This document shows, piece by piece, positions 2,832 through 26,995 of a stretch of 32,000 nt of DNA (positions within the stretch are counted from its first letter, which is position 1; each line of letters opens with the position of its first letter). The translations under genes were made by a program, and so were the position numbers. The DNA is from an uncultured Chloroflexia bacterium (GTDB lineage Bacteria > Chloroflexota > Ktedonobacteria > Ktedonobacterales > JADMIN01): NCBI GenBank assembly GCA_963718915.1, contig CAVRAI010000001.1, forward strand, positions 390,001 to 422,000. Direction: 5' to 3'. The notes under the pieces were generated by a model, which was not told where the DNA came from, did not search any database, and saw only the letters and a program-made list of their open reading frames with translations.

Positions 2832-2913
2832 CTGGCACGAATAGTGTTGCGTGAACCCGTATCTACGGTATAATGCGCGCGGCACTACCCGGCACATCAG
2901 GAGGCGTCCGGTG
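2832..2913 (+). promoter_or_regulatory. 82-bp repeat copy 1: TTGCGT-16-TATAAT promoter plus conserved 40-nt leader, pointing into the 3' end of the minus-strand TIR gene
   Basis: 76/82 identical to 4880-4961 by hand alignment. -35 at 2847-2852 and -10 at 2869-2874. The 50 nt TACGGTATAATGCGCGCGGCACTACCCGGCACATCAGGAGGCGTCCGGTG are identical in both copies. Confidence 0.6.
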
Positions 2914-3037
2914 TTGAGCTTTGCTCTCACGCGCTGATCATCCTGAAACGAATTGCACCTCATTGTACTCATGCCCAGCCATCGCATAGCAGAACATGGA
3001 TTCGCATCTTCACAAAGTTTATATGATCCACTTAAAA

Positions 3038-4681
3038 CTAGGCACTCTCTGTTAGCCTACTCAAAAGGCCACGCATTTCAAGCTCCCTCTTATGGAGAAG
3101 ATCTGCCATATCATAATCTTGATGTTGTAAGGCAATGTCTTTCTCGAACATAAGGGCTTCTAGCGCTTGCGGGATTGATAGTTTTTCGGCGTTTTCAGAG
3201 CTTCCAGAATTCTTAAGCGCTTCGATAACAGCTGCCCGCACCCTTTCGAGATTGACACCTAGAGCTTCCAGCACTCCAGCGGCGATGCCCTCACCCTCCC
3301 GCACCATTCCCAAGAGCAAATGCTCGGTACCAACGTAGTGATGGTTCAGTCGCCGTGCCTCATCAACTGCAAGCTGGAGTATTGTTTTGGAGCGTGGCGT
3401 CAACCCTATCTGGCTCGATTCAACATGGTCGCCACGCCCAATGATAAATTCGACAGCACTACGCACCTTGCCAAGTTCGATTCCCAACTTGGCCAATACC
3501 CTGCCAGCTACTCCGTTGCCTTCACGTACCAGTCCTAGCAATAGATGTTCGGACCCAATGTAGTTATGCTCGAAGCGCCGCGCTTCATTCTCTGCCAGGT
3601 GCAACACAGAGTGAGCACGCTCAGTAAAAAAGTCTAATTTGTCAATATCACCAGGCGTACGGTATGATTCAAACGACATGTCTGGCAAGCTTCTCTTCAT
3701 TAACAGTGATTTGCCAGCAATCCCATCTTCCGCTTGCCGTTTCCATCCCTGCCATTCGACACTTGTGGCATCGAATTGGACCCCACGCTGACAGACTTTC
3801 AACGCTTTGTCCCATTGGCCGAGCGCGAGTAACCACTGCACCTGTTCTCGCAAGATTTGTTCGCGCTTCTCTCGTCCATGGGTGCAGACATAGGCATTCT
3901 CCCAGGCCAATTGGGCTGCTTCAATATCTGGTGCGTCCTGGGCCATCAGCCATCGTGCCAATATTTGCCAGTAATCGCCCCTGAATTCATTTATTTCTAG
4001 CGCGTGCCGCAGATTCGCAAGCGCATTTTGCTGTTCGCCAAGCCTATATTGGGCTTGAGCCAATTCTGCATAAATGCGCTCATCGCGCGTGTTATCAGAA
4101 AATACGAGCGCCCTTTGCGCAAAGAGCATTACATCGTGCCACAGTTCCTGGTGAAAAGCCTCATGCACCTCATTGGCCAATGCAAGTGAACGTTCTGCCT
4201 GAGGGGCTAGTGCTAATGCATCTTTATCAGTTGCGCGCTCTGAAGCGGTTCCACTAATTACGCGTCCTGAGCTCTGCCAGTGAGCTTCCAGGATGTCTGG
4301 CGGCTGTTCTGGTGAGAGATCCACCTGTTGGAATAGATGCAGGAACGAGGAAAGTCTGCTGATGTCGGTCCGTGTCAGGGTTGGATCAATACTTATAGGG
4401 ATAATGCGATGAGTACGGACCGAAAAGGTTAGATCAAGCGCGAGGCGTGTTTCTGCGCGAACCCAGGTCGCCACGACACTATGTTTAGAGAGGACAAGAA
4501 GAAAGATTGGACGACCCTCCAACTCCGTCTGTATACGGTCGAGCCAATCATCTCCGCTCTGCAGTTGCTCGCGGTCATAGAATGCGTCCATGCCCATAGT
4601 CGCTGTAAGCCACGTGTAAAGACGTTCACAAAAAGGGGTATCGAAATGCGAGTGGCTAATGAAGATTTTTTCCCCTGCCAT
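3038..4681 (-). CDS. TIR - TPR-like repeats - double Clp_N repeat - UVR-like motif fusion protein (547 aa)
   Basis: TIR: KIFISHSHFD and LLVLSKHSVVATWVRAE (Glu77). TPR-like helices span aa ~165-315. Clp_N x2: ARRFEHNYIGSEHLLLGLVREGNGVAGRVLAKLGI and ARRLNHHYVGTEHLLLGMVREGEGIAAGVLEALGV. UVR-like: KDIALQHQDYDMADLLHKRELEMRGLL. RBS GAAGGGA lies 7 nt before the ATG. Confidence 0.85.
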   Translation of the reverse strand: MAGEKIFISHSHFDTPFCERLYTWLTATMGMDAFYDREQLQSGDDWLDRIQTELEGRPIFLLVLSKHSVVATWVRAETRLALDLTFSVRTHRIIPISIDPTLTRTDISRLSSFLHLFQQVDLSPEQPPDILEAHWQSSGRVISGTASERATDKDALALAPQAERSLALANEVHEAFHQELWHDVMLFAQRALVFSDNTRDERIYAELAQAQYRLGEQQNALANLRHALEINEFRGDYWQILARWLMAQDAPDIEAAQLAWENAYVCTHGREKREQILREQVQWLLALGQWDKALKVCQRGVQFDATSVEWQGWKRQAEDGIAGKSLLMKRSLPDMSFESYRTPGDIDKLDFFTERAHSVLHLAENEARRFEHNYIGSEHLLLGLVREGNGVAGRVLAKLGIELGKVRSAVEFIIGRGDHVESSQIGLTPRSKTILQLAVDEARRLNHHYVGTEHLLLGMVREGEGIAAGVLEALGVNLERVRAAVIEALKNSGSSENAEKLSIPQALEALMFEKDIALQHQDYDMADLLHKRELEMRGLLSRLTESA

Positions 4682-4719
4682 GGATAAATCCCTTCAGAAC
4701 GCTTTTGCGGTTCATGGCA

Positions 4720-4748
4720 ATTGTAACTCTAGTAGCTTCCTACGTCAA
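4720..4748 (-). promoter_or_regulatory. Sigma70-type promoter of the TIR-Clp_N gene (TTGACG-17-TACAAT)
   Basis: Minus strand has TTGACG (4748-4743), a 17-nt spacer and TACAAT (4725-4720), about 40 nt upstream of the ATG at 4681. Confidence 0.55.
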
Positions 4749-4879
4749 ACATGCATTAATCACTTTTTGGAAGATGGTTGGCTACCTAATCTGCATAAGT
4801 CTCTTGGGACAGGAGGTGCCGCATCGTGAAGACTGGCAGCGTAAAACCTAACTTGCCTTTGTACGACAAGGCTGTGCAG

Positions 4880-4961
4880 CTGGCACGAATAGTGTTGCAT
4901 GGATGCGCATGTACGGTATAATGCGCGCGGCACTACCCGGCACATCAGGAGGCGTCCGGTG
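4880..4961 (+). promoter_or_regulatory. 82-bp repeat copy 2: TTGCAT-16-TATAAT promoter plus conserved leader upstream of the 5011 gene
   Basis: Direct repeat of 2832-2913. -35 at 4895-4900 and -10 at 4917-4922. The leader continues about 50 nt to the ATG at 5011. Confidence 0.6.
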
Positions 4962-8791: not shown

Positions 8792-8797
8792 GGAGTG

Positions 8798-8835
8798 CCC
8801 TCTCCGCCAGCCCCTCCGCGCGTCGGGGAGGAGAG
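8798..8835. repeat. CCCTCTCC-type hairpin repeat, copy a (terminator-like, directly after purA stop)
   Basis: CTCTCC (8800-8805) pairs with GGAGAG (8830-8835), and an inner CCCC (8811-8814) pairs with GGGG (8825-8828). This is a divergent member of the family listed below. Confidence 0.5.
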
Positions 8836-8890
8836 CCAGATACACCTCTTGGGGCGAATAGCATGTCACACGATAGATAGGAACGCGCAA

Positions 8891-9142
8891 ATGATGGAGT
8901 CGCTTTCCCAGGTCGTGTTGCTCGTTGATATGCCAGAGCATCGATTGCGCGTAGGTGACGTGGGCGTTGTGGTTGATGTGCATCCGGGCACACCTGCAAC
9001 GGGTAATGTCGCAGGCTATAGCGTCGAGTTCGTTACCATGAGTGGGGAAACGATGGCAGTACTCGAACTTGAAGAAACACAGATACGCCCTGTCCGCTCA
9101 ACCGATATTGCCCATGTGCGCGAGCTTGCCAGCGCCTCGTAA
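8891..9142 (+). CDS. DUF4926-like small protein (83 aa)
   Basis: MMESLSQVVLLVDMPEHRLRVGDVGVVVDVH...YSVEFVTMSGETMAVLELEETQIRP fits the DUF4926 pattern (V.L..DLPE.GL..GD.G.VV.V......Y.VEF....G.T.A...L...Q). The internal ATG at 8891 is preferred because the longer ORF from 8795 starts inside the hairpin repeat. Confidence 0.6.
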   Translation: MMESLSQVVLLVDMPEHRLRVGDVGVVVDVHPGTPATGNVAGYSVEFVTMSGETMAVLELEETQIRPVRSTDIAHVRELASAS

Positions 9143-9165
9143 AGCGTACCCGATAAGGAAAACCT

Positions 9166-9897
9166 GTGACGCCCAACGCCTATTCTTCGCTATGGTTTCG
9201 CCTCTTCATGCCCTTGCAGACAGACGAATCCACCGAGAAGGATGTTGCCTTTCTCGCCCGCCAGCTCCCGCTCCCGCGCTATGTGCGTCTGCTAGACCTC
9301 TGCTGCGGATATGGGCGTCATGCGCTGCGGCTGGCGGAACGTGGCTATCAAATGACAGGGCTGGATCGCGACCCGGAGGCCACCGCCGAGGCTGAGCGCC
9401 GCACGCGCGCGGCAAATCAGCAGGTGACATATCTCGTCGGCGATATGCGCGAGGTAGGCGAATTACCCGGAACGTTCGACGGGGTCATCAACATGTGGCA
9501 GAGCCTGCCCTATTTCGATGAGGCAACCAATGCCGAGGTGCTGCGCCAGGTACGCGGCAAGCTGACGCCAGGCGGGCGCTTCATCGTGGATATCTACAAT
9601 CGCGAGTACTTCGAGCGCAACCAGGGCCAGCGACGCCAGGAGATCGACGGGACGGTAGTCGAATCCGACGGATATATGCAGGGCAATCGCTGGCACTCCG
9701 TGCTGACCTATCGCGATGCGGCTGGCGCAGTCATCGGCGGCGATCACATGGAGTGGCAGATGTTTACCCCGGACGAGTTCGTAGCCCTGGCGTCCGAATG
9801 TGACTTTACCTCGCGGTTGGCCTGCGCCTGGGCGGATGAGAACATCGCGCCAACCCCAGATGTCGCGCGGATGCAGGTCGTCCTTGAGCGCGTCTAA
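9166..9897 (+). CDS. Class I SAM-dependent methyltransferase
   Basis: GTG start with AAGGAA 5 nt upstream. Motif I is VRLLDLCCGYGRHALRLAERG, followed by GLDRD, YLVGDMRE, FDGVINMWQSL and LTPGGRFIVD. Confidence 0.85.
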   Translation: MTPNAYSSLWFRLFMPLQTDESTEKDVAFLARQLPLPRYVRLLDLCCGYGRHALRLAERGYQMTGLDRDPEATAEAERRTRAANQQVTYLVGDMREVGELPGTFDGVINMWQSLPYFDEATNAEVLRQVRGKLTPGGRFIVDIYNREYFERNQGQRRQEIDGTVVESDGYMQGNRWHSVLTYRDAAGAVIGGDHMEWQMFTPDEFVALASECDFTSRLACAWADENIAPTPDVARMQVVLERV

Positions 9898-9899
9898 TA

Positions 9900-10072
9900 C
9901 CGAACCTGGGTGGATTGCCGTCATACGGCGGCAGACCGTAGCGTGGACGCTCCGGCGCTCCGCCTCTCTGGTTTAATCGTCAGGGCCTTGCGCTCTCTCA
10001 GGCTCCGGCACGCTCCTCACAGACAACGGCCCAGCCGGACACGGCATTATTTTGGGTTCACCCGCCTCAACT
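9900..10072. repeat. Degenerate copy of the MITE-like element family
   Basis: The core GACCGTAGCGTGGACGCTCCGGCG..CCGCCTCTCTGG (9934-9972) matches GGCCGTAGCGTGAACGCTCCGGCG...CCGGCCTCTCTGG of the 11940-12098 element. CCGGACACGGCATT (~10035) resembles its arm. The boundaries are uncertain. Confidence 0.35.
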
Positions 10073-10195
10073 GAAGATCCCACATATGCATAATGGCGGG
10101 AACGGAATCTGCGAACAGACAACTGGTGAGCCCGCTAAGGTTGTGTGTCCACTAAGGTCACTGCTCAGCGGGAACTCCGCACGATTGGGGTAAGC

Positions 10196-11686
10196 ATGGC
10201 TACGAGCGCACGGCCCACGGGAACGGGGCTGACCCAAGCTGACGGCATGCGGGAGGCGCCGTTTGCGTCGTCGTGGCGGCGCGCGCACTTGTCGGTGGAC
10301 GAGCGCGTAGCCAGAGGCCACGCTGCGCGCCGGGAGGCGCCACGGTCCGAGCATGGCCGGTGGAAGGCGGCGCCGAATCGCCCAGACCCGGTGGCGCTGC
10401 TGGAGGAGCAAGCGGCGACCCGAGTGCCGGAGCTAGCGCCGATCCGGTACGGGCGGATGCTGGTCTCGCCGTTCACCTTCTACCGAGGGGCGGCGGCAAT
10501 CATGGCAGCCGACCTGGCGTCCACCCCGGTCGCGGGAATCACCGTGCAGCTATGCGGAGATGCGCACCTGTCGAACTTCGGGGTATTCGGCACCCCGGAG
10601 CGGCAGCTGATCTTCGACATCAACGATTTTGACGAGACCCTGCCCGGCCCGTGGGAGTGGGACGTCAAGCGGATGGCGGCCAGCTTCGAAATCATGGGTC
10701 GGTTTCGCGGTTTCTCCTCGGCTGACCGGCGTGTGATCGTCACCGCCGGGGTGCAAGAGTACCGGGAGCGGATGCGCCGGGCCGCCGGGATGGGCACGCT
10801 GGACGCCTGGTATGACCATCTCGAAGCTGAGGTGCTGCTCAACCTGACCCGTCAGCAGGTTCGCCTCAAGCATCTGGACAAAAAGTCCGCGCAGCAGGCG
10901 GAAAAGTATGTGGCCAAGGCCTATACCCGTGACAGCACCCAGGTGCTGGCCAGGCGGGCATCCAAGGTCGGCGGTGACCTGCGGATAGTAGCTGACCCGC
11001 CGCTGATCATCCCCATCGAAGACATGATCGTGGCTGGGACCGAGTGGGAGGACCCGGTTCCGCTGATCAAGAAACTGCTCGCCACCTACCGGCGCACCCT
11101 CGGCAGCCAGGGTCATCCGCTGGAAGAGTTCCGTTACGTGCACGCCGCGCGCAAGGTGGTCGGCGTGGGCAGTGTCGGTACCCGCTGCTACATCCTGCTG
11201 CTCATCGGCCGCGACGAGGACGACCCGCTGTTCTTGCAGGTGAAAGAGGCGCAGGCCTCGGTGCTGGAGGCGTATGCAGGCCGCAGTACCTATCCCCACC
11301 ACGGCCAGCGGGTGGTGATGGGCCAGCAGTTGATGCAGGCGGCCACCGACATTTTCCTCGGCTGGCAGCGGATCAAAGGCATTGACGGCGTGGCCCGTGA
11401 CTATTACGTGCGCCAGTTCCATGACTGGAAAGGTGGCATCGACGTGGAGCGAATCACCGTACCTGGCTCCACGCAATACGCGCGGTTTTGCGGGGCGACG
11501 CTGGCCAGGGCGCACGCCCGCTGGGGCGACCGGATCGCGATCGCGTCCTACCTCGGCAAGGGCGATATGTTCGACCGGGCCATCGCCGAGTTCTCCGTCG
11601 CGTACGCCGACCAAAACGAACGCGACTACCAGATGTTCGCAGAGGCCGTGAACTCCGGGCGGCTGATTGCTCAAACTGGCGTGTAG
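10196..11686 (+). CDS. DUF2252 family protein
   Basis: LLEEQAATRVPELAPIRYGRMLVSPFTFYRGAAAIMAADLA...VQLCGDAHLSNFG...ERQLIFDINDFDETLPGPWEWDVKRMAAS are the conserved blocks I recognise for DUF2252. The ATG at 10196 (GGGGTAAG upstream) is preferred over the GTG at 10145. Confidence 0.75.
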   Translation: MATSARPTGTGLTQADGMREAPFASSWRRAHLSVDERVARGHAARREAPRSEHGRWKAAPNRPDPVALLEEQAATRVPELAPIRYGRMLVSPFTFYRGAAAIMAADLASTPVAGITVQLCGDAHLSNFGVFGTPERQLIFDINDFDETLPGPWEWDVKRMAASFEIMGRFRGFSSADRRVIVTAGVQEYRERMRRAAGMGTLDAWYDHLEAEVLLNLTRQQVRLKHLDKKSAQQAEKYVAKAYTRDSTQVLARRASKVGGDLRIVADPPLIIPIEDMIVAGTEWEDPVPLIKKLLATYRRTLGSQGHPLEEFRYVHAARKVVGVGSVGTRCYILLLIGRDEDDPLFLQVKEAQASVLEAYAGRSTYPHHGQRVVMGQQLMQAATDIFLGWQRIKGIDGVARDYYVRQFHDWKGGIDVERITVPGSTQYARFCGATLARAHARWGDRIAIASYLGKGDMFDRAIAEFSVAYADQNERDYQMFAEAVNSGRLIAQTGV

Positions 11687-11784
11687 AGAGACCCGCGGTT
11701 GTGGGAGGCTGTCGTCCCCGCGCACAGCAGGATTCATACCTGTCTCAGACAACCTCTAATATGCGCTGCTACGTCCCTGCGTAG

Positions 11785-11838
11785 TTAATACACCGCATAG
11801 CCGCCGACGACCGCGCGGTGATAGCCCTCGTGCGGCAG
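11785..11838 (-). pseudogene. Remnant: last ~17 codons of a paralog/allele of the GT-C glycosyltransferase gene
   Basis: The minus-strand translation LPHEGYHRAVVGGYAVY* compares with LPHEGYTRAVVGGYVIYYYTG* at 13708-13770. The 39-nt core (11800-11838) is 34/39 identical by hand. There is no upstream gene body. Confidence 0.7.
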
Positions 11839-11939
11839 AGTGTGGCTTTGCCTCGCGACTGATCTGCGCCTGGGCGGATGAGGCCATTCCGCCATCCCCA
11901 GATGTCGCGCGGATGCAGGTTGTCCTTGAGCGAACCTAA
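11838..11939 (+). pseudogene. Remnant: last 33 codons plus stop of a diverged copy of the methyltransferase gene
   Basis: ECGFASRLICAWADEAIPPSPDVARMQVVLERT* compares with ECDFTSRLACAWADENIAPTPDVARMQVVLERV* (9796-9897). The length is the same, 86/102 nt are identical by hand count, and the stop is at the same position. There is no upstream gene body. Confidence 0.8.
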
Positions 11940-12098
11940 TGTGGTTTTACCATGTACGACGGACACGGGAATTGCGGTGGGGTGAGCAGGCCGTAGCGTG
12001 AACGCTCCGGCGAATTTCCCGGCCTCTCTGGCCCATGTGCTGGCAGGTCCCGGCAGGCCCACCCCAGCACGCTGTTCGGGGTTATTTCTAAAACCACA
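11940..12098. mobile_element. 159-bp MITE-like non-autonomous element
   Basis: Perfect 10-bp terminal inverted repeats TGTGGTTTTA (11940-11949) and TAAAACCACA (12089-12098). It is flanked by TAA on both sides (11937-11939 and 12099-12101) and has no coding capacity. Related copies occur at ~21121-21288 and, degenerate, at ~9900-10072. Confidence 0.7.
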
Positions 12099-12265
12099 TA
12101 AGGCGCAGGAACACAGCTCACATGCGCGAGCTTGCCAGCGCCTCGTACGCCGTGACCGTCGTGGATTGGGCCGTAATTACGAAGTCGTCCTGTGCGAACA
12201 TCTCAAGGGAAAGTCTTGCTCGCGCAGTGGGTCATCTCTGTGCTTGCGAAGCCTACGCCTCCATC

Positions 12266-12294
12266 TTGCACGCTATGGCGCCTGATGCTACACT
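12266..12294 (+). promoter_or_regulatory. Sigma70-type promoter of the TIR-FGS gene (TTGCAC-17-TACACT)
   Basis: TTGCAC at 12266-12271, a 17-nt spacer and TACACT at 12289-12294, about 50 nt upstream of the start. Confidence 0.45.
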
Positions 12295-12341
12295 GGCAGG
12301 GCAGCCAGACGGATTAGGCGCGCATTCGTAACAGAGAGGCG

Positions 12342-13655
12342 GTGGCCAGAGCCATGAGCGCATTTCATACGACCTTCGTCAGCCATGCCCACGTCGATAA
12401 CGACCTCTGCGACCGCTTCGTCGCCGCATTGCGGGCACGCGGGATAGACATCTGGTATGACCGCAACAACGCCCAGGCGGGCCATTTCCTCGACCGGGAG
12501 ATCGAGCAGCAACTGAAGCAGCGCTCCGCCTTCGTCCTGCTGATGACGCAGCAGGCGCTCGACTCCTTCTGGGTGCAACAGGAGCTAGACGCCTATCGCG
12601 GGCTGATGGCGCAAGATCGCGCGCGTCTGCTGTTGCCCGTGCGCATCGGCCCCTGCCAGGTGACGCCGTTTCTCAATGCCCTGCTCTGGATCGACGCGCT
12701 GGCGATGCCCTTCGACCAGGCGCTAGACGAGATCGCCGCCGCGCTGATGGTGCAGGGCGCTCCATCGGCTCAGCCGCCCGTTGTCACACCACCGCCCCGC
12801 GATAGCTTGCCGCCGCTCGGCCCTGCGCCCGCGCCTGCGAATAGCGCGCCCGCGCTGCATCTCACCCCCATGTCGCTTTATAATCTCGGCTTTCGTGGCT
12901 ACCGCGTGAACGGCGTCGAGTGCATCCTGCCACCGCTCTGCCCGGTACCCGGTGGCGTCTTCACGATGGGCAGCGACAAAACCCGTGACCAAGCGGCGTT
13001 TGACGGGGAGACGCCACAATATCCCGTCGAGGTGGATGGCTTCGCCATTGGCCAGCATCCCGTCACCGTCGCCGAGTACGCCTGCGCCGTGCGCGCCAAA
13101 GCGGTACGCGAGCCATCGAAAGTCGCCCACCCTGATGTGGATTGGACGAAGCAGCAGACACACCCCGATCACCCGGTGGTCTGCGTCTGGTGGAAAGATG
13201 TGCTTGCCTATGCGCAGTGGCTGGCCAAGACGACAGGGCAGCGCTGGCGACTGCCGAGTGAGGCGGAGTGGGAGAAGGCGGCGCGTGGGGATGACGGGCG
13301 TATCTATCCCTGGGGCGACACCTTCGACAAGGTTCGCTGCAACACCAGCGAAAGCGACATCAGAACGACGACGCCCGTAGGCAGCTACCCCAGTGGCGAG
13401 AGTCCGTATCACGTCCAGGATATGACTGGCAACGTCTGGGAGTGGACGAGTACGCTGTATCAGCCGTATCCCTACCGTAAAAACGATGGGAGAGAGAATC
13501 CAAATTCCATTGATAGTCGAGTGCTGCGTGGCAGTTCGTGGGTCGGCTACCAACAGAACATGCGCGCAGCCTATCGCCTCCTCGGCCGACCCGCCTTCCT
13601 CCACGTCTACAGCATTGGGGTTCGTCTGGCGGTCTCGGCGCCTGGTTCAGCATAA
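12342..13655 (+). CDS. TIR domain - Pro-rich linker - FGE-sulfatase (SUMF1/formylglycine-generating-enzyme-like) domain protein
   Basis: TIR: TTFVSHAHVDN, IWYD and AFVLLMTQQALDSFWVQQE (Glu81). FGE-sulfatase: GGVFTMGSD, HPVTVAEY, HPVVCVWWKDVLAYAQWL, RLPSEAEWEKAARG, YPWGD, GNVWEWT and RVLRGSSW. An alternative start is the ATG at 12354. Confidence 0.85.
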   Translation: MARAMSAFHTTFVSHAHVDNDLCDRFVAALRARGIDIWYDRNNAQAGHFLDREIEQQLKQRSAFVLLMTQQALDSFWVQQELDAYRGLMAQDRARLLLPVRIGPCQVTPFLNALLWIDALAMPFDQALDEIAAALMVQGAPSAQPPVVTPPPRDSLPPLGPAPAPANSAPALHLTPMSLYNLGFRGYRVNGVECILPPLCPVPGGVFTMGSDKTRDQAAFDGETPQYPVEVDGFAIGQHPVTVAEYACAVRAKAVREPSKVAHPDVDWTKQQTHPDHPVVCVWWKDVLAYAQWLAKTTGQRWRLPSEAEWEKAARGDDGRIYPWGDTFDKVRCNTSESDIRTTTPVGSYPSGESPYHVQDMTGNVWEWTSTLYQPYPYRKNDGRENPNSIDSRVLRGSSWVGYQQNMRAAYRLLGRPAFLHVYSIGVRLAVSAPGSA

Positions 13656-13663
13656 GGGCGCGA

Positions 13664-13698
13664 ACCTCACCCCCGTCCCCTCTCCTGTGGGAGAGGGG
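13664..13698. repeat. CCCCTCTCC hairpin repeat, copy b (reverse orientation; between convergent genes)
   Basis: ACCTCACCCC (13664-13673) is followed by a perfect 9-bp stem, CCCCTCTCC (13677-13685), loop tgtg, GGAGAGGGG (13690-13698). Confidence 0.8.
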
Positions 13699-13707
13699 AG
13701 CCAGAAT

Positions 13708-15606
13708 CTACCCCGTGTAATAGTAGATGACATACCCGCCGACGACTGCGCGGGTATAGCCCTCGTGTGGCAGCCCCGCAGCCTCCGCAAGTTGGGCGAA
13801 TTGGCGATCCTGCACGCTGCCGAGCGTCAGCAGATAGGCGGGATGAGGCGTCCATGCAAGCTCATCCACCCACGGCTGATAGCGGTTGGCGTTGAGCGTC
13901 AGATTCGGCTGACCGACCTCGCCACGAATCGCGCAGTACAGCCGCTCGTCCACCTCGAAGGCGACACGATAGCATGCCCAGTAGTCGTTGGTGTAGTAGG
14001 CCGTGACCTGATGGGCGTCGAAGAAGGCAATGATCGGGCGATCCACCGGCACAATCGGCTGAGCAAAGCGCGTGGCGTCGCCAGAATAGGCCAGCGTCTG
14101 CGCGCCACCATAGAGGCTGCTCGCCAGCATCCACACCAGCCCCAGCGCCGCTATAGCTGGGACGATCCAGCGTTTCCTTAAGGCGACCTTGCCAGTTGAA
14201 TGCAATGTTGTGCTGCGGCCCCTCCCCTCATAGGGGAGGGGGTAGGGGGAGAGGTTCTTCGCCGCTGACCACAACACGCCGACGAAGAGCGGCGTCGCCA
14301 GATAGAGCGGCAGCAGATAGCGCGCCGAGGTGAATTGGAAGTTGGCGGCGTCACGGCTGGTGAGGAAGAGCGCCAGCGTCAGCAGCGCGATGCCCAGCAG
14401 CATCGCCCGCAGCCAGCGCCGCGCATTTGCCTCAGTATTCGATTGCGCCGCCAGGCGCGCCACCTCGCCCTCTCCGGCCGATTGGATGCGCATGCCGCGT
14501 CGAGCCAGCCAGTCGCGCACGACGGCCAGTTGCGGCGTCAGTCGCAGCCAGAGCCAGAGCCAGCGTCCAAGCTGCCAGGCGACCACACCCAGCAGGAAGA
14601 GCGCGCCCAGCGAGATCATCACGTTCGGCGCCTGACACGCCAGATCGTTTCCGGCGGTGGAACGAGCCATTGCGGGCGGGTAGGAGTCCCAGATGTTGCC
14701 CTGGGTGATACAGACCTGTGGGCTGCCCGCCACCACTGGTAGCCCGGCGGTGAGCGCCCCGGAGGACTGGAGCAGCACGCCCGAAGGATTGCTCTGGTGC
14801 GAAAGCTGTTTGTAGGTGGCGTTGCCGGTCGCGAGATTGAAGCTGATGTAGGGCCACGCGCCGAGCAGCATCCCTACCACCAGCGCCACCCCGGCCAGCG
14901 AGAGCAGCTCGCGCCAGCGTCCGATGAGCAGCGCGCCCGCCGCCACCAGCAGAATCGGCGCGATCAGCATATCTGACCAGAGGCCCACCCCGGCGAGCAC
15001 GCCGAGCGCCGCATAGAACGCGATGCAGCGGAGCCAGCCCGCGCGGCTCGTCGGGCGTGTATAGGGCAGCCGCAGCCGCGACCAGACACCGAGCAGAATC
15101 AGCCCGCCAAGCAACAGCAGCTCCTGATAGCCGCCAATCGGCGCCAGTTGTCGCAGCGTGAAGATCGGCGGGCTGATGACCAGCCACGCGAGCGCCAGCA
15201 ATCCCACCGTCGGCCCGTAGGCGGCGCGCCCAATCCAGTAGACGGTGGCGAGGAAGCCGAGCGTCAGCAGCAGCGCGCTCAGTCCCAGCACGAAGGTGGA
15301 TGAGCCAAAGAGCGCGAAGAGCAGCGCGGCGAAATAGGCCTCGAACGGCCCCATGTAGTTCTGGCCCCAGAAGAAGGTGGGACGCTCGCCGTGCAGGATA
15401 TGGCGCGCCATCAGCCCAATGACCGCTTCATCGCTATCGAGCGCGGGCCAGCCACGCGCCAGCAGGATCAGGCGATAGATGGCCGCCAGCGCGAGCAGGA
15501 GCAGCGCCACGCGCCCCGGCGTCAGCGCGCGCATTGTGGTGCGCAGCAGCCCGCCAGATTGCTTGCCCGGTGCGGCTCGTGATTCGGTCGTCGCGCTCAT
15601 GCCCAT
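13708..15606 (-). CDS. GT-C fold glycosyltransferase, PMT/ArnT-like (GT39/GT83-like) polytopic membrane protein
   Basis: 632-aa ORF with many TM helices. The first loop, WPALDSDEAVIGLMARHILHGERPTFFWGQNYMGPFEAY, carries the acidic pair typical of GT-C enzymes. The C-terminal soluble domain is uncharacterised. The start could be 15606, 15600 or a later Met. Confidence 0.6.
   Translation of the reverse strand: MGMSATTESRAAPGKQSGGLLRTTMRALTPGRVALLLLALAAIYRLILLARGWPALDSDEAVIGLMARHILHGERPTFFWGQNYMGPFEAYFAALLFALFGSSTFVLGLSALLLTLGFLATVYWIGRAAYGPTVGLLALAWLVISPPIFTLRQLAPIGGYQELLLLGGLILLGVWSRLRLPYTRPTSRAGWLRCIAFYAALGVLAGVGLWSDMLIAPILLVAAGALLIGRWRELLSLAGVALVVGMLLGAWPYISFNLATGNATYKQLSHQSNPSGVLLQSSGALTAGLPVVAGSPQVCITQGNIWDSYPPAMARSTAGNDLACQAPNVMISLGALFLLGVVAWQLGRWLWLWLRLTPQLAVVRDWLARRGMRIQSAGEGEVARLAAQSNTEANARRWLRAMLLGIALLTLALFLTSRDAANFQFTSARYLLPLYLATPLFVGVLWSAAKNLSPYPLPYEGRGRSTTLHSTGKVALRKRWIVPAIAALGLVWMLASSLYGGAQTLAYSGDATRFAQPIVPVDRPIIAFFDAHQVTAYYTNDYWACYRVAFEVDERLYCAIRGEVGQPNLTLNANRYQPWVDELAWTPHPAYLLTLGSVQDRQFAQLAEAAGLPHEGYTRAVVGGYVIYYYTG
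14219..14255. repeat. Hairpin repeat, copy c, embedded in-frame in the glycosyltransferase CDS
   Basis: Perfect stem CCCCTCCCC (14219-14227), loop tcata, GGGGAGGGG (14233-14241), then GTAGGGGGAGAGGT. On the coding strand this encodes NLSPYPLPYEGRGRS. Confidence 0.75.
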
Positions 15607-15660: not shown

Positions 15661-15697
15661 CCCTCTCCTCGTGGGAGAGGGGGCCAGGGGGTGAGGT
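15661..15697. repeat. CCCTCTCC hairpin repeat, copy d
   Basis: CCCTCTCC (15661-15668), loop tcgtg, GGAGAGGG (15674-15681), then GGCCAGGGGGTGAGGT. Confidence 0.8.
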
Positions 15698-20834: not shown

Positions 20835-20917
20835 GTCGCCAGAAGCGGCTGGCGGCCAGTGTGTTTTTACTTGTTCTTACGTAGTTTTGAAATTACCAGG
20901 GACAGGCGCTGGGGAGC

Positions 20918-21113
20918 GCGGGCGGTTGAAACCGCGCCTTTGGGGCCTGCGGCCACCAAGTCCGCCGTCGCGGACTCCCAGATCGTGTCCCAACGCGCGA
21001 CCCGTTGGCGAGCGGTTCTGGGCAACCCGCGCAGGCGGGTTTCGTGGCGGAGCGTGCGCAGCAGGCGAGGCCCACAAGGCGCGACTTCAGTCGCCCGCCG
21101 CCGTGGCGGTCCG
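20918..21113. repeat. Mosaic of short GC-rich hairpin units (BIME/REP-like), copy B
   Basis: GCGG-ttgaaa-CCGC (20922-20935), AGTCCGC-cgtc-GCGGACT (20959-20976), AACCCGC-gcag-GCGGGTT (21024-21041) and GCGACT-tc-AGTCGC (21081-21094). The unit order is colinear with copy A at 1054-1221. Confidence 0.75.
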
Positions 21114-21120
21114 TCGTAAT

Positions 21121-21288
21121 TAGTAAAACGACATCAGAACACCCTACGTCGTGGTGGGCGAGGCAGGCCGTAGCATACATGCATCAATGCTACGGCGAGT
21201 TTCCCGGCCTCTCTGGCCATTTGCTGGCAGGCCCCGGCTTGCTCGCCTCACCGCAATGCCCGTGTCCGTCGTACATGGTAAAAGTACA
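21121..21288. mobile_element. Second copy of the MITE-like element (left boundary uncertain)
   Basis: The core CCGTAGC...GCGAGTTTCCCGGCCTCTCTGGCCATTTGCTGGCAGGCCCCGGC matches 11990-12055. The right arm CACCGCAATGCCCGTGTCCGTCGTACATGGTAAAAGTACA is the reverse complement of the left arm of the 11940 copy. Confidence 0.6.
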
Positions 21289-21437
21289 TCAACCGCCCGT
21301 CTTCACGCGCCCGCCAGCGCGCCGACGCTATAGCAGAAGCGCGGCGATACGCGGTACAATGCGGCGCGGTGCAATGCGGCATCTGGGTACGTTCCCTCCC
21401 CTTGCTGGCCCCGCTGTGCATAGAAGGAGAAGCCGCC

Positions 21438-26803: not shown

Positions 26804-26959
26804 CCTAAGGCGCGCTCAAGACGTGCATCAAGCGCACGAGAGAAGATAAAACGTGCACTAATCAAGCGCCTGAGAATAGGTGCAAACGTCTCTGTCTAAG
26901 TGGATGGACAGTGACCTGTTATGGTCGACGTCACTCGCGGCCGCACTCGCTGCTCTGCC

Positions 26960-26995
26960 CCCCTCTCCTCCCAGGAGAGGGGCTGGAGGTGAGGT
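26960..26995. repeat. CCCCTCTCC hairpin repeat, copy f
   Basis: CCCCTCTCC (26960-26968), loop tccca, GGAGAGGGG (26974-26982), then CTGGAGGTGAGGT. Confidence 0.8.

Follow-up and report, generated by a model that had tools for sequence, protein, structure and literature searches.

The window analysed here is a stretch of 32,000 nt from a Ktedonobacterales soil bacterium, with a GC content of 61.1%, and all coordinates given below are window positions. It contains an interval bordered on the left by a gene for a class I S-adenosylmethionine (SAM)-dependent methyltransferase (MT) and on the right, in convergent orientation, by a gene for a polytopic membrane protein, here called "GT" for glycosyltransferase. 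Two cargo genes lie between them, one encoding a DUF2252 protein and the other a fusion of a TIR domain with an FGE-sulfatase domain (TIR-FGS), and these are separated by fragments of the 3' ends of both border genes placed back to back (Table 1). This arrangement is examined here as the probable scar of a recombination event between two alleles of the same interval. An initial annotation, made from the letters of the sequence, had placed DUF2252 in the left part of the interval and a miniature inverted-repeat transposable element (MITE) plus TIR-FGS in the right part, and for the genes Pfam searches agreed with this. Its label of "GT-C" for the right border gene could not be confirmed, as the protein had no Pfam match (even at E<=5), no NCBIfam match and no PDB sequence match. 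No integrase, transposase or tRNA was found in the MT-GT interval (Pfam scan, tRNA search), tRNA and Rfam searches of the window gave no match, and scanning 9.8-13.8 kb for consensus promoters and terminators gave nothing above shuffle expectation.

Table 1. Features in and around the MT-GT interval, with the second repeat-flanked insert of the window.
Feature	Position	Strand	Evidence or remark
Second event: direct repeats R1 (2832-2913) and R2 (4880-4961) with insert	2832-4961		Self-BLASTN and relatives
DUF4926 gene	8795-9142	+	Pfam DUF4926, E 1e-15; variable cargo of the purA-MT interval
MT, class I SAM-dependent, intact, left border gene	9166-9897	+	Pfam Methyltransf_25, E 6e-18
Resident copy of the 102-nt MT 3' end	9796-9897	+	86/102 against 11838-11939
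Degenerate MITE-family sequence (right end approximate)	9898-10060		Directly 3' of the resident MT stop
DUF2252 gene, putative first-allele cargo	10145-11686	+	Pfam DUF2252, E 7e-138
Remnant of the "GT" 3' end, last 23 codons, long-form class	11769-11838	-	Colinear with intact GT ends of relatives
Novel joint region	11822-11839		Direct comparison with the MT and GT genes, both in the window and in relatives
MT 3'-end remnant, 34 codons including stop, from a diverged allele	11838-11939	+	86/102 against the resident copy
MITE including TAA target duplication	11937-12101		Body 11940-12098; inverted arms 93% complementary
Exact 25-nt copy of the DUF4926 3' end	12123-12147	+	Source or partner 9117-9141
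TIR-FGS: TIR + FGE-sulfatase (SUMF1/EgtB-like) fusion, putative second-allele cargo	12342-13655	+	Pfam TIR_2, E 1e-20; FGE-sulfatase, E 3e-50
REP-like palindrome, located between TIR-FGS and the stop codon of GT	13664-13701		Copies elsewhere in the window
"GT": 632-aa polytopic membrane protein, intact, right border gene	13708-15606	-	Conserved in all relatives; GT-C label unverified

To place these features, 17 related Ktedonobacterales loci (79-92% nucleotide identity; designated by L numbers) were gathered by MT-based scans and gene-context look-ups. The resident MT belongs to a group of 243-aa orthologs in Ktedonobacterales with 86-91% identity. Its 3' end aligned with 11838-11939 without gaps and with the stop codon at the same place, and self-BLASTN of the window reproduced the hand-counted similarity of the initial annotation, matching 9782-9898 to 11822-11940 with an E value of 2e-27; a repeat-family search recovered the same pair. 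The closest relative of the resident end was L044 (94/102), while the best match of the remnant was L017 (85/95, 89%), with 79-85% to the remaining relatives. Twelve of the 16 differences between remnant and resident copy are states present in functional relatives (12 distinct relatives compared), 6-7 of the 16 being the majority state among them, and the four that are unique to the remnant fall at positions 46/47, within one codon, and at 96/98, beside the MITE. Because 12 of the 16 differences match states of functional relatives and the remnant has no indels relative to the resident copy, it is best read as an undecayed member of the allele pool and not as a decayed copy of the resident end. 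An origin from a diverged functional allele had been proposed before and is upheld by these allele-pool states. The earlier argument that most changes were synonymous or conservative was overstated, and is weak: six of the 16 nucleotide changes are synonymous, the other ten lie in seven non-synonymous codons, and the distribution over codon positions is 7/4/5.

Immediately to the left of the MT remnant, the predicted GT-type copy was also found, but it is larger than had been reported, extending over 11769-11838 and not only 11785-11838. Self-BLASTN and the repeat search aligned 11796-11838 with 13731-13773 (88% identity over 43 nt, E 2e-8), the second copy of this repeat being the 3' end of the intact GT gene (13708-13773). 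The remnant translates as LPHEGYHRAVVGGYAVY followed by a stop, and its counterpart in the intact gene as LPHEGYTRAVVGGYVIYYYTG followed by a stop. Colinearity with the relatives extends as far as the original stop codon (CTA, 11769-11771), but the remnant has a 1-nt insertion that causes a premature stop at 11785-11787, a frameshift of the kind expected of a dead fragment. Its sequence is identical to those of L019 and L043 at 65 of 70 positions, and it has the long C-terminal form seen in all DUF2252 and GNAT alleles. The C-terminus of the intact GT is shorter by 3 nt (one codon), a short form otherwise found only in the empty-site alleles L003, L022 and L039, and the best relative match to this end was 86%. 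By these features the two GT 3' ends can be assigned to different allele classes.

GT-type sequence runs through position 11838 and MT-type sequence begins at 11838, giving an overlap of 1 nt and confirming that the two fragments abut at their truncated 5' ends. A block of 7-8 nt (TAGCCCT) is shared by both parental sequences 8-10 nt upstream, 2 nt out of register. The joint was also considered as an in-register imperfect homology patch of 18 nt, which was rejected with the TAGCCCT block 2 nt off and the overlap 1 nt. From its sequence the joint looks like a product of end joining and not of classical 3-10 bp microhomology.

The stop codon of the MT remnant is followed by an element with a body of 159 nt (11940-12098) and terminal inverted repeats of 10-15 nt (TGTGGTTTTA and TAAAACCACA), the inverted arms at 11935-11949 and 12089-12103 each covering 15 nt. 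Its target duplication is TAA, present at 11937-11939 and 12099-12101, and the left copy is the stop codon of the remnant itself. Related copies were detected at 21186-21289 (~90%), at 9898 to ~10060, and in L017 at 1064-1099. As the predicted folds of the element were no more stable than those of shuffled sequences, the evidence for its assignment comes from the terminal repeats, from the target duplication and from the related copies; with inverted repeats, a target duplication, a small non-coding body and multiple copies, it can be classed as a MITE. It had been stated that both MT ends are followed by the same MITE family. A good MITE does follow the remnant, but on the resident side there is only a degenerate relative, in which 9931-9971 shows 80% identity to 11986-12031. 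The sequence from 9898 to ~10060 is common to the window and L017 only, L001 and L019 being unrelated there.

TIR-FGS belongs to a large multi-copy family in Ktedonobacterales. Its best protein match had 78% amino acid identity, in unrelated contexts (L009-L013), and the nucleotide homology between the window gene and its paralogs covers the gene plus 60-100 nt upstream only, with no flanking repeats. The possibility that flanking duplications are a general trait of the family was rejected, as the paralogs at other loci lack repeats. Against defence models TIR-FGS gave only domain-level TIR matches (PADLOC ThsB, E 1e-9; NCBIfam far below cut-offs), and the ThsA-type partner gene by which a Thoeris system would be recognised was not found in the MT-GT interval. 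A role in defence is a guess.

MT and GT border the interval in L001, L003, L014/15, L017, L019, L021, L022, L023, L039, L040/41 and L043. The interval is empty in L003, L022 and L039. It contains DUF2252 only in L001, L017, L018, L019, L021, L023, L040/41, L043 and probably L044, a GNAT acetyltransferase in L014/15, and two insertion sequence (IS) elements with DUF2252 in L016, where the GT is truncated. DUF2252 together with TIR-FGS is found in the window. TIR-FGS was absent from the interval in all 17 related loci, and no GT remnant or additional MT end occurred in any of them. Because these relatives show differing content between the same border genes, the interval is on this comparison a genuine variable slot, that is, a hotspot of horizontal gene transfer flanked by core genes. 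The suggestion that DUF2252 and TIR-FGS are alternative cargos of this slot holds in so far as the cargo varies, but TIR-FGS is the sole cargo in no relative and for this gene the suggestion draws on the remnants. From upstream of DUF2252, window 10091-11838 is colinear with L001, L019, L021 and L023 into their intact GT 3' end, and homology with the DUF2252 alleles picks up again at the corresponding point of GT, window 13708/13711. The window therefore has an extra 1.87 kb compared with the common DUF2252 allele, consisting of the MT 3' fragment, the MITE, TIR-FGS and the second GT 3' end.

The DUF2252 region is 89-90% identical to those of L001, L017, L019, L021 and L023, and 92.7% identical to that of L016. 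The higher value applies to window 10047-11701 against L016 10553-12206, though the flanking backbone of the two loci is only about 86% (85.8%) identical, which suggests that the DUF2252 cargo passes from one lineage to another independently of the backbone.

Among DUF2252-type alleles there are close matches for the resident MT end and for the GT remnant, whereas none that close was found for the MT remnant (89%) or the intact GT end (86%). Because the MT ends and the GT ends thus fall in different alleles, a DUF2252-type allele appears to have been joined to an allele from a slot without DUF2252. It is considered probable that two alleles of the MT-GT slot were joined head to tail by the additive integration of a foreign allele, leaving a recombination scar and not a functional element. 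The first allele would be of the common DUF2252 type, with MT, the degenerate MITE, DUF2252 and a long-form GT 3' end; the second would have contributed an MT 3' end, the MITE in its TAA stop codon, TIR-FGS and a short-form GT. The initial annotation's view of the region, as a recombination joint where two forms of a single convergent intergenic cargo hotspot meet, is thereby supported by the varying content of the slot in the relatives, none of which has the remnant pair, by the allele-pool states of the MT remnant and by the two classes of GT end.

In the usual model of hotspot turnover, double homologous exchange at the border genes replaces the cargo (PMC5635113). As such an exchange leaves no scar, one non-homologous joint is required here. 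The incoming fragment would have recombined homologously in one border gene, which would be GT for an incoming TIR-FGS and MT for an incoming DUF2252. Its other, broken end would have been attached by an illegitimate joint with practically no microhomology, at a point 70 nt into the recipient GT (or 102 nt into MT). Since the incomer would bring its own border-gene end, both border genes would remain intact and two orphan 3' fragments would be left back to back. The two-allele composition, the hotspot, the position of the joint and the lack of this arrangement in the relatives can be read directly from the sequences. The direction of transfer (either TIR-FGS with a GT anchor or DUF2252 with an MT anchor), the mechanism of one-sided homology and the route by which the DNA entered are inferred. 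The foreign DNA most likely came from a diverged Ktedonobacterales lineage. Once formed, the diverged direct repeats (102 nt at 84%; ~70 nt at ~85%) could in principle resolve the structure to either single-cargo allele.

Homology-facilitated illegitimate recombination, in which homology on one side is combined with an illegitimate joint on the other, is documented by experiments, according to what is summarised in PMC6382021 (work by de Vries and Wackernagel in 2002 and by Prudhomme et al. in 2002). The proposed event would share with it one homologous anchor and one illegitimate joint, and in both heterologous DNA is integrated beside the anchor with no need for mobile-element functions, as far as that summary describes the process. 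As such a scar would require, the GT|MT joint is non-homologous, and the inserted DNA has the marks of a diverged lineage, with a distinct MT remnant allele and a different GT end class. It differs in that the process is here deduced from sequence. With the core-gene-flanked hotspots (PMC5635113), including core defence hotspots (PMC10250203), the locus has in common two conserved border genes, variable content and no integrase, and also the mosaic similarity of cargo and border segments that is described for such hotspots (PMC5635113), as in the DUF2252 cargo and backbone compared with L016 above. It departs from the standard hotspot model (PMC5635113) in that one side is non-homologous, cargo was added and not replaced, and orphan gene ends were left. 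Gene-end direct repeats with intact border genes are likewise found at tandem duplication joints and at genomic islands with att flanks that rebuild the target gene's 3' end, but the repeats of the window are 84-93% identical, match different alleles and are not accompanied by a recombinase, and the content of the units is not duplicated.

Several points weigh against an additive integration of this kind. Both GT and MT are intact and colinear with the relatives, and sliding-window identity in GT and in MT/DUF2252 gave no clear crossover or allele-switch point, so that the homologous side is deduced and not seen. The joint has 1 nt of microhomology at 11838, compared with the 3-10 bp given in PMC6382021 for the classical joints described there. 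No donor allele with the order MT-MITE-TIR-FGS-GT was found when the TIR-FGS protein was searched against 5.8 billion proteins and genome and metagenome contigs were scanned with MT and gene contexts looked up, the closest TIR-FGS being the 78% matches at other loci. There is also a third fragment, absent from the first reading of the region, which the simple model does not explain. This is a 25-mer at 12123-12147, located 22 nt to the right of the TAA of the MITE and upstream of TIR-FGS, that matches 9117-9141 in the 3' end of the DUF4926 gene exactly (two matches in the window, none in 100 shuffles). Because it carries a T that is specific to the window, all nine relatives having G at that position, the 25-mer must have been copied within the window's own lineage. 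It may be filler templated at a different breakpoint or a small conversion patch, and it suggests that the second allele may have had a more complex or multi-step history.

A second duplication-flanked insert was detected elsewhere in the window. The 82-nt direct repeats R1 and R2 are 92.7% identical and flank an insert of 1966 nt (2914-4879), which has a GC content of 49.9%, compared with 61.1% in the window, and carries a gene encoding TIR_2, TPR and Clp_N domains on the minus strand (3038-4681). The relatives have a single copy of the 82-mer and no insert. The variable spacer of R1 is L014-like and that of R2 is identical to L020/L021; because the two repeats match different population alleles, 2832-4961 is taken to be a second event with the same two-allele signature. 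In a self-BLAST of the loci collected for comparison (~327 kb besides the window), the Ktedonobacterales relatives showed no comparable repeat pair, the one exception being a 78% repeat in L016, the locus with IS elements. No integrase or recombinase was detected with Pfam in or beside the 2914-4879 unit or the TIR-FGS unit. It should also be noted that the 82-mer is promoter-like, with TTGCGT and TATAAT separated by 17 nt and followed by AGGAGG and GTG.

Of the other explanations for the MT-GT structure, the one that survives best is of the Campbell type, in which a foreign MT-GT piece of ~1.9-2.0 kb was end-joined into a circle, forming the GT|MT joint, and then integrated by a single crossover in GT (70 nt) or MT (102 nt). 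The observed product would arise in one integration step, and the model is consistent both with the lack of a detectable crossover deeper in GT or MT and with the similar build of the two units, each of ~2 kb with a single gene and diverged direct repeats (spacings 1935/2042 and 2048 nt). However, 70-102 nt of homology at 84-88%, with a longest exact run of ~25 nt, would be a poor RecA substrate. The remnant differs from the resident along its whole length (positions 3-98), with no crossover visible in the MT repeat, and Pfam showed no replication or excision function in the unit. Integration of a circle is considered unlikely.

An assembly artefact, in which two strain or species alleles of one sample were concatenated, for instance because a read was chimeric or a haplotype was falsely duplicated, has in its favour that both duplications of the window combine two population alleles, as a mixed sample could supply. 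The 1-nt overlap means that there is no shared k-mer at the joint from which a graph assembler could have made it, similarity of the backbone to the relatives is unchanged across the joint, the GT remnant bears a frameshift of its own, and the contig of origin measures at least 510 kb. An artefact is thus thought quite improbable.

In situ tandem duplication of the interval from the MT 3' end to the GT 3' end had also been proposed; afterwards the copies would have had to diverge, and one of them to exchange its cargo. It predicts the geometry of the joint correctly, with a GT end followed by an MT end, but the content of the two units is not the same: they have only the gene ends and a MITE-family element in common, DUF2252 and TIR-FGS being unrelated. 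The MT copies are only 84% identical, and the remnant shows states of functional alleles and not random decay. Moreover, the GT ends come from different allele classes, close relatives of the DUF2252 type have no duplication, and homologous exchange could have replaced the second unit only if a crossover had fallen in the initial 2 nt of the remnant. This origin is disfavoured and seems very doubtful. Last, a site-specific integrative or cis-mobilisable element targeting the MT or GT 3' end and supplying a replacement gene end, with the repeats as att sites, is hardly credible: direct repeats of gene 3' ends do flank ~2 kb of cargo with both target genes intact, but no integrase or recombinase lies in or beside either unit, the unit flanked by GT repeats holds an MT fragment obtainable only from an MT-GT locus, homology of the TIR-FGS paralogs elsewhere stops ~60-100 nt upstream of the gene with no flanking repeats, and the DUF2252 alleles of the relatives lack a second MT end.

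Both inserted cassettes encode TIR-domain proteins (genes at 12342-13655 and 3038-4681). Two independent events were seen within 32 kb, compared with none across ~300 kb of related loci. Together with the templated 25-mer they would be the traces of a recurrent integrase-free route in this lineage that stacks ~2-kb single-gene cassettes and does not replace cargo, possibly through small circles that have captured border-gene ends and integrate by means of these. Such a route is a speculative proposal with a low probability; if true, it would yield two-allele intermediates that are resolvable between diverged repeats.

The additive joining of two slot alleles is an ordinary footprint of the stacking of acquired genes, a known kind of event, and does not constitute a new kind of system. 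Turnover of hotspots at flanking core genes is usually inferred statistically, without a physical trace, and such a trace is preserved here. The orphan ends of both border genes would mark the place where the second allele was added, implying that hotspots can grow by addition besides replacement. The locus also provides a dated example, at the level of sequence, from a phylum that has been little studied (Chloroflexota, Ktedonobacterales), with TIR-domain genes in the cargo as candidates for immune functions.

Other repeats were noted in the window. The MITE-family copy at 21115-21290 is rearranged relative to 11940-12098, with its B segment followed by an inverted A segment, and an extra end of the AAAACGACA type lies upstream of it; this may represent two nested or partial MITE copies. 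An intergenic palindrome resembling a repetitive extragenic palindromic (REP) element (CCCCTCTCC..GGGAGAGGGG) occurs at ~15661-15697, 26957-26995 and 8813-8839 in addition to the copy in Table 1, and L012 and L013 likewise have it close to their TIR-FGS paralogs.

A second variable slot lies between purA and MT (window 8792-9165), which among the loci compared holds nothing, DUF4926, DUF6883 plus DUF4926, VanZ, or a pentapeptide-repeat gene with small open reading frames. The DUF4926 gene is absent in L001, is accompanied by DUF6883 in L014/L043, and has other genes in its place in L022/L040.

Irregularities were also seen within the border genes. A patch of ~95 nt in the GT coding sequence (window 14165-14260) could not be aligned to the relatives, whose matching 61-69 nt (e.g., L001 7084-7144) resemble window 20916-20976 at 80-90% (noted site 20912-20980). 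Part of the patch can be matched to short palindromes of the repeat type in L020, L021 and L023, and the site looks like an in-frame swap of a repeat element within the GT gene. In L016 (13765-14600) the GT breaks off after ~800 nt and the gene next in line encodes an NADH dehydrogenase, and the MT gene of L023 has an in-frame stop at ~9660 (CT*ADES). These two defects reflect either further decay and rearrangement around the slot or sequencing errors.

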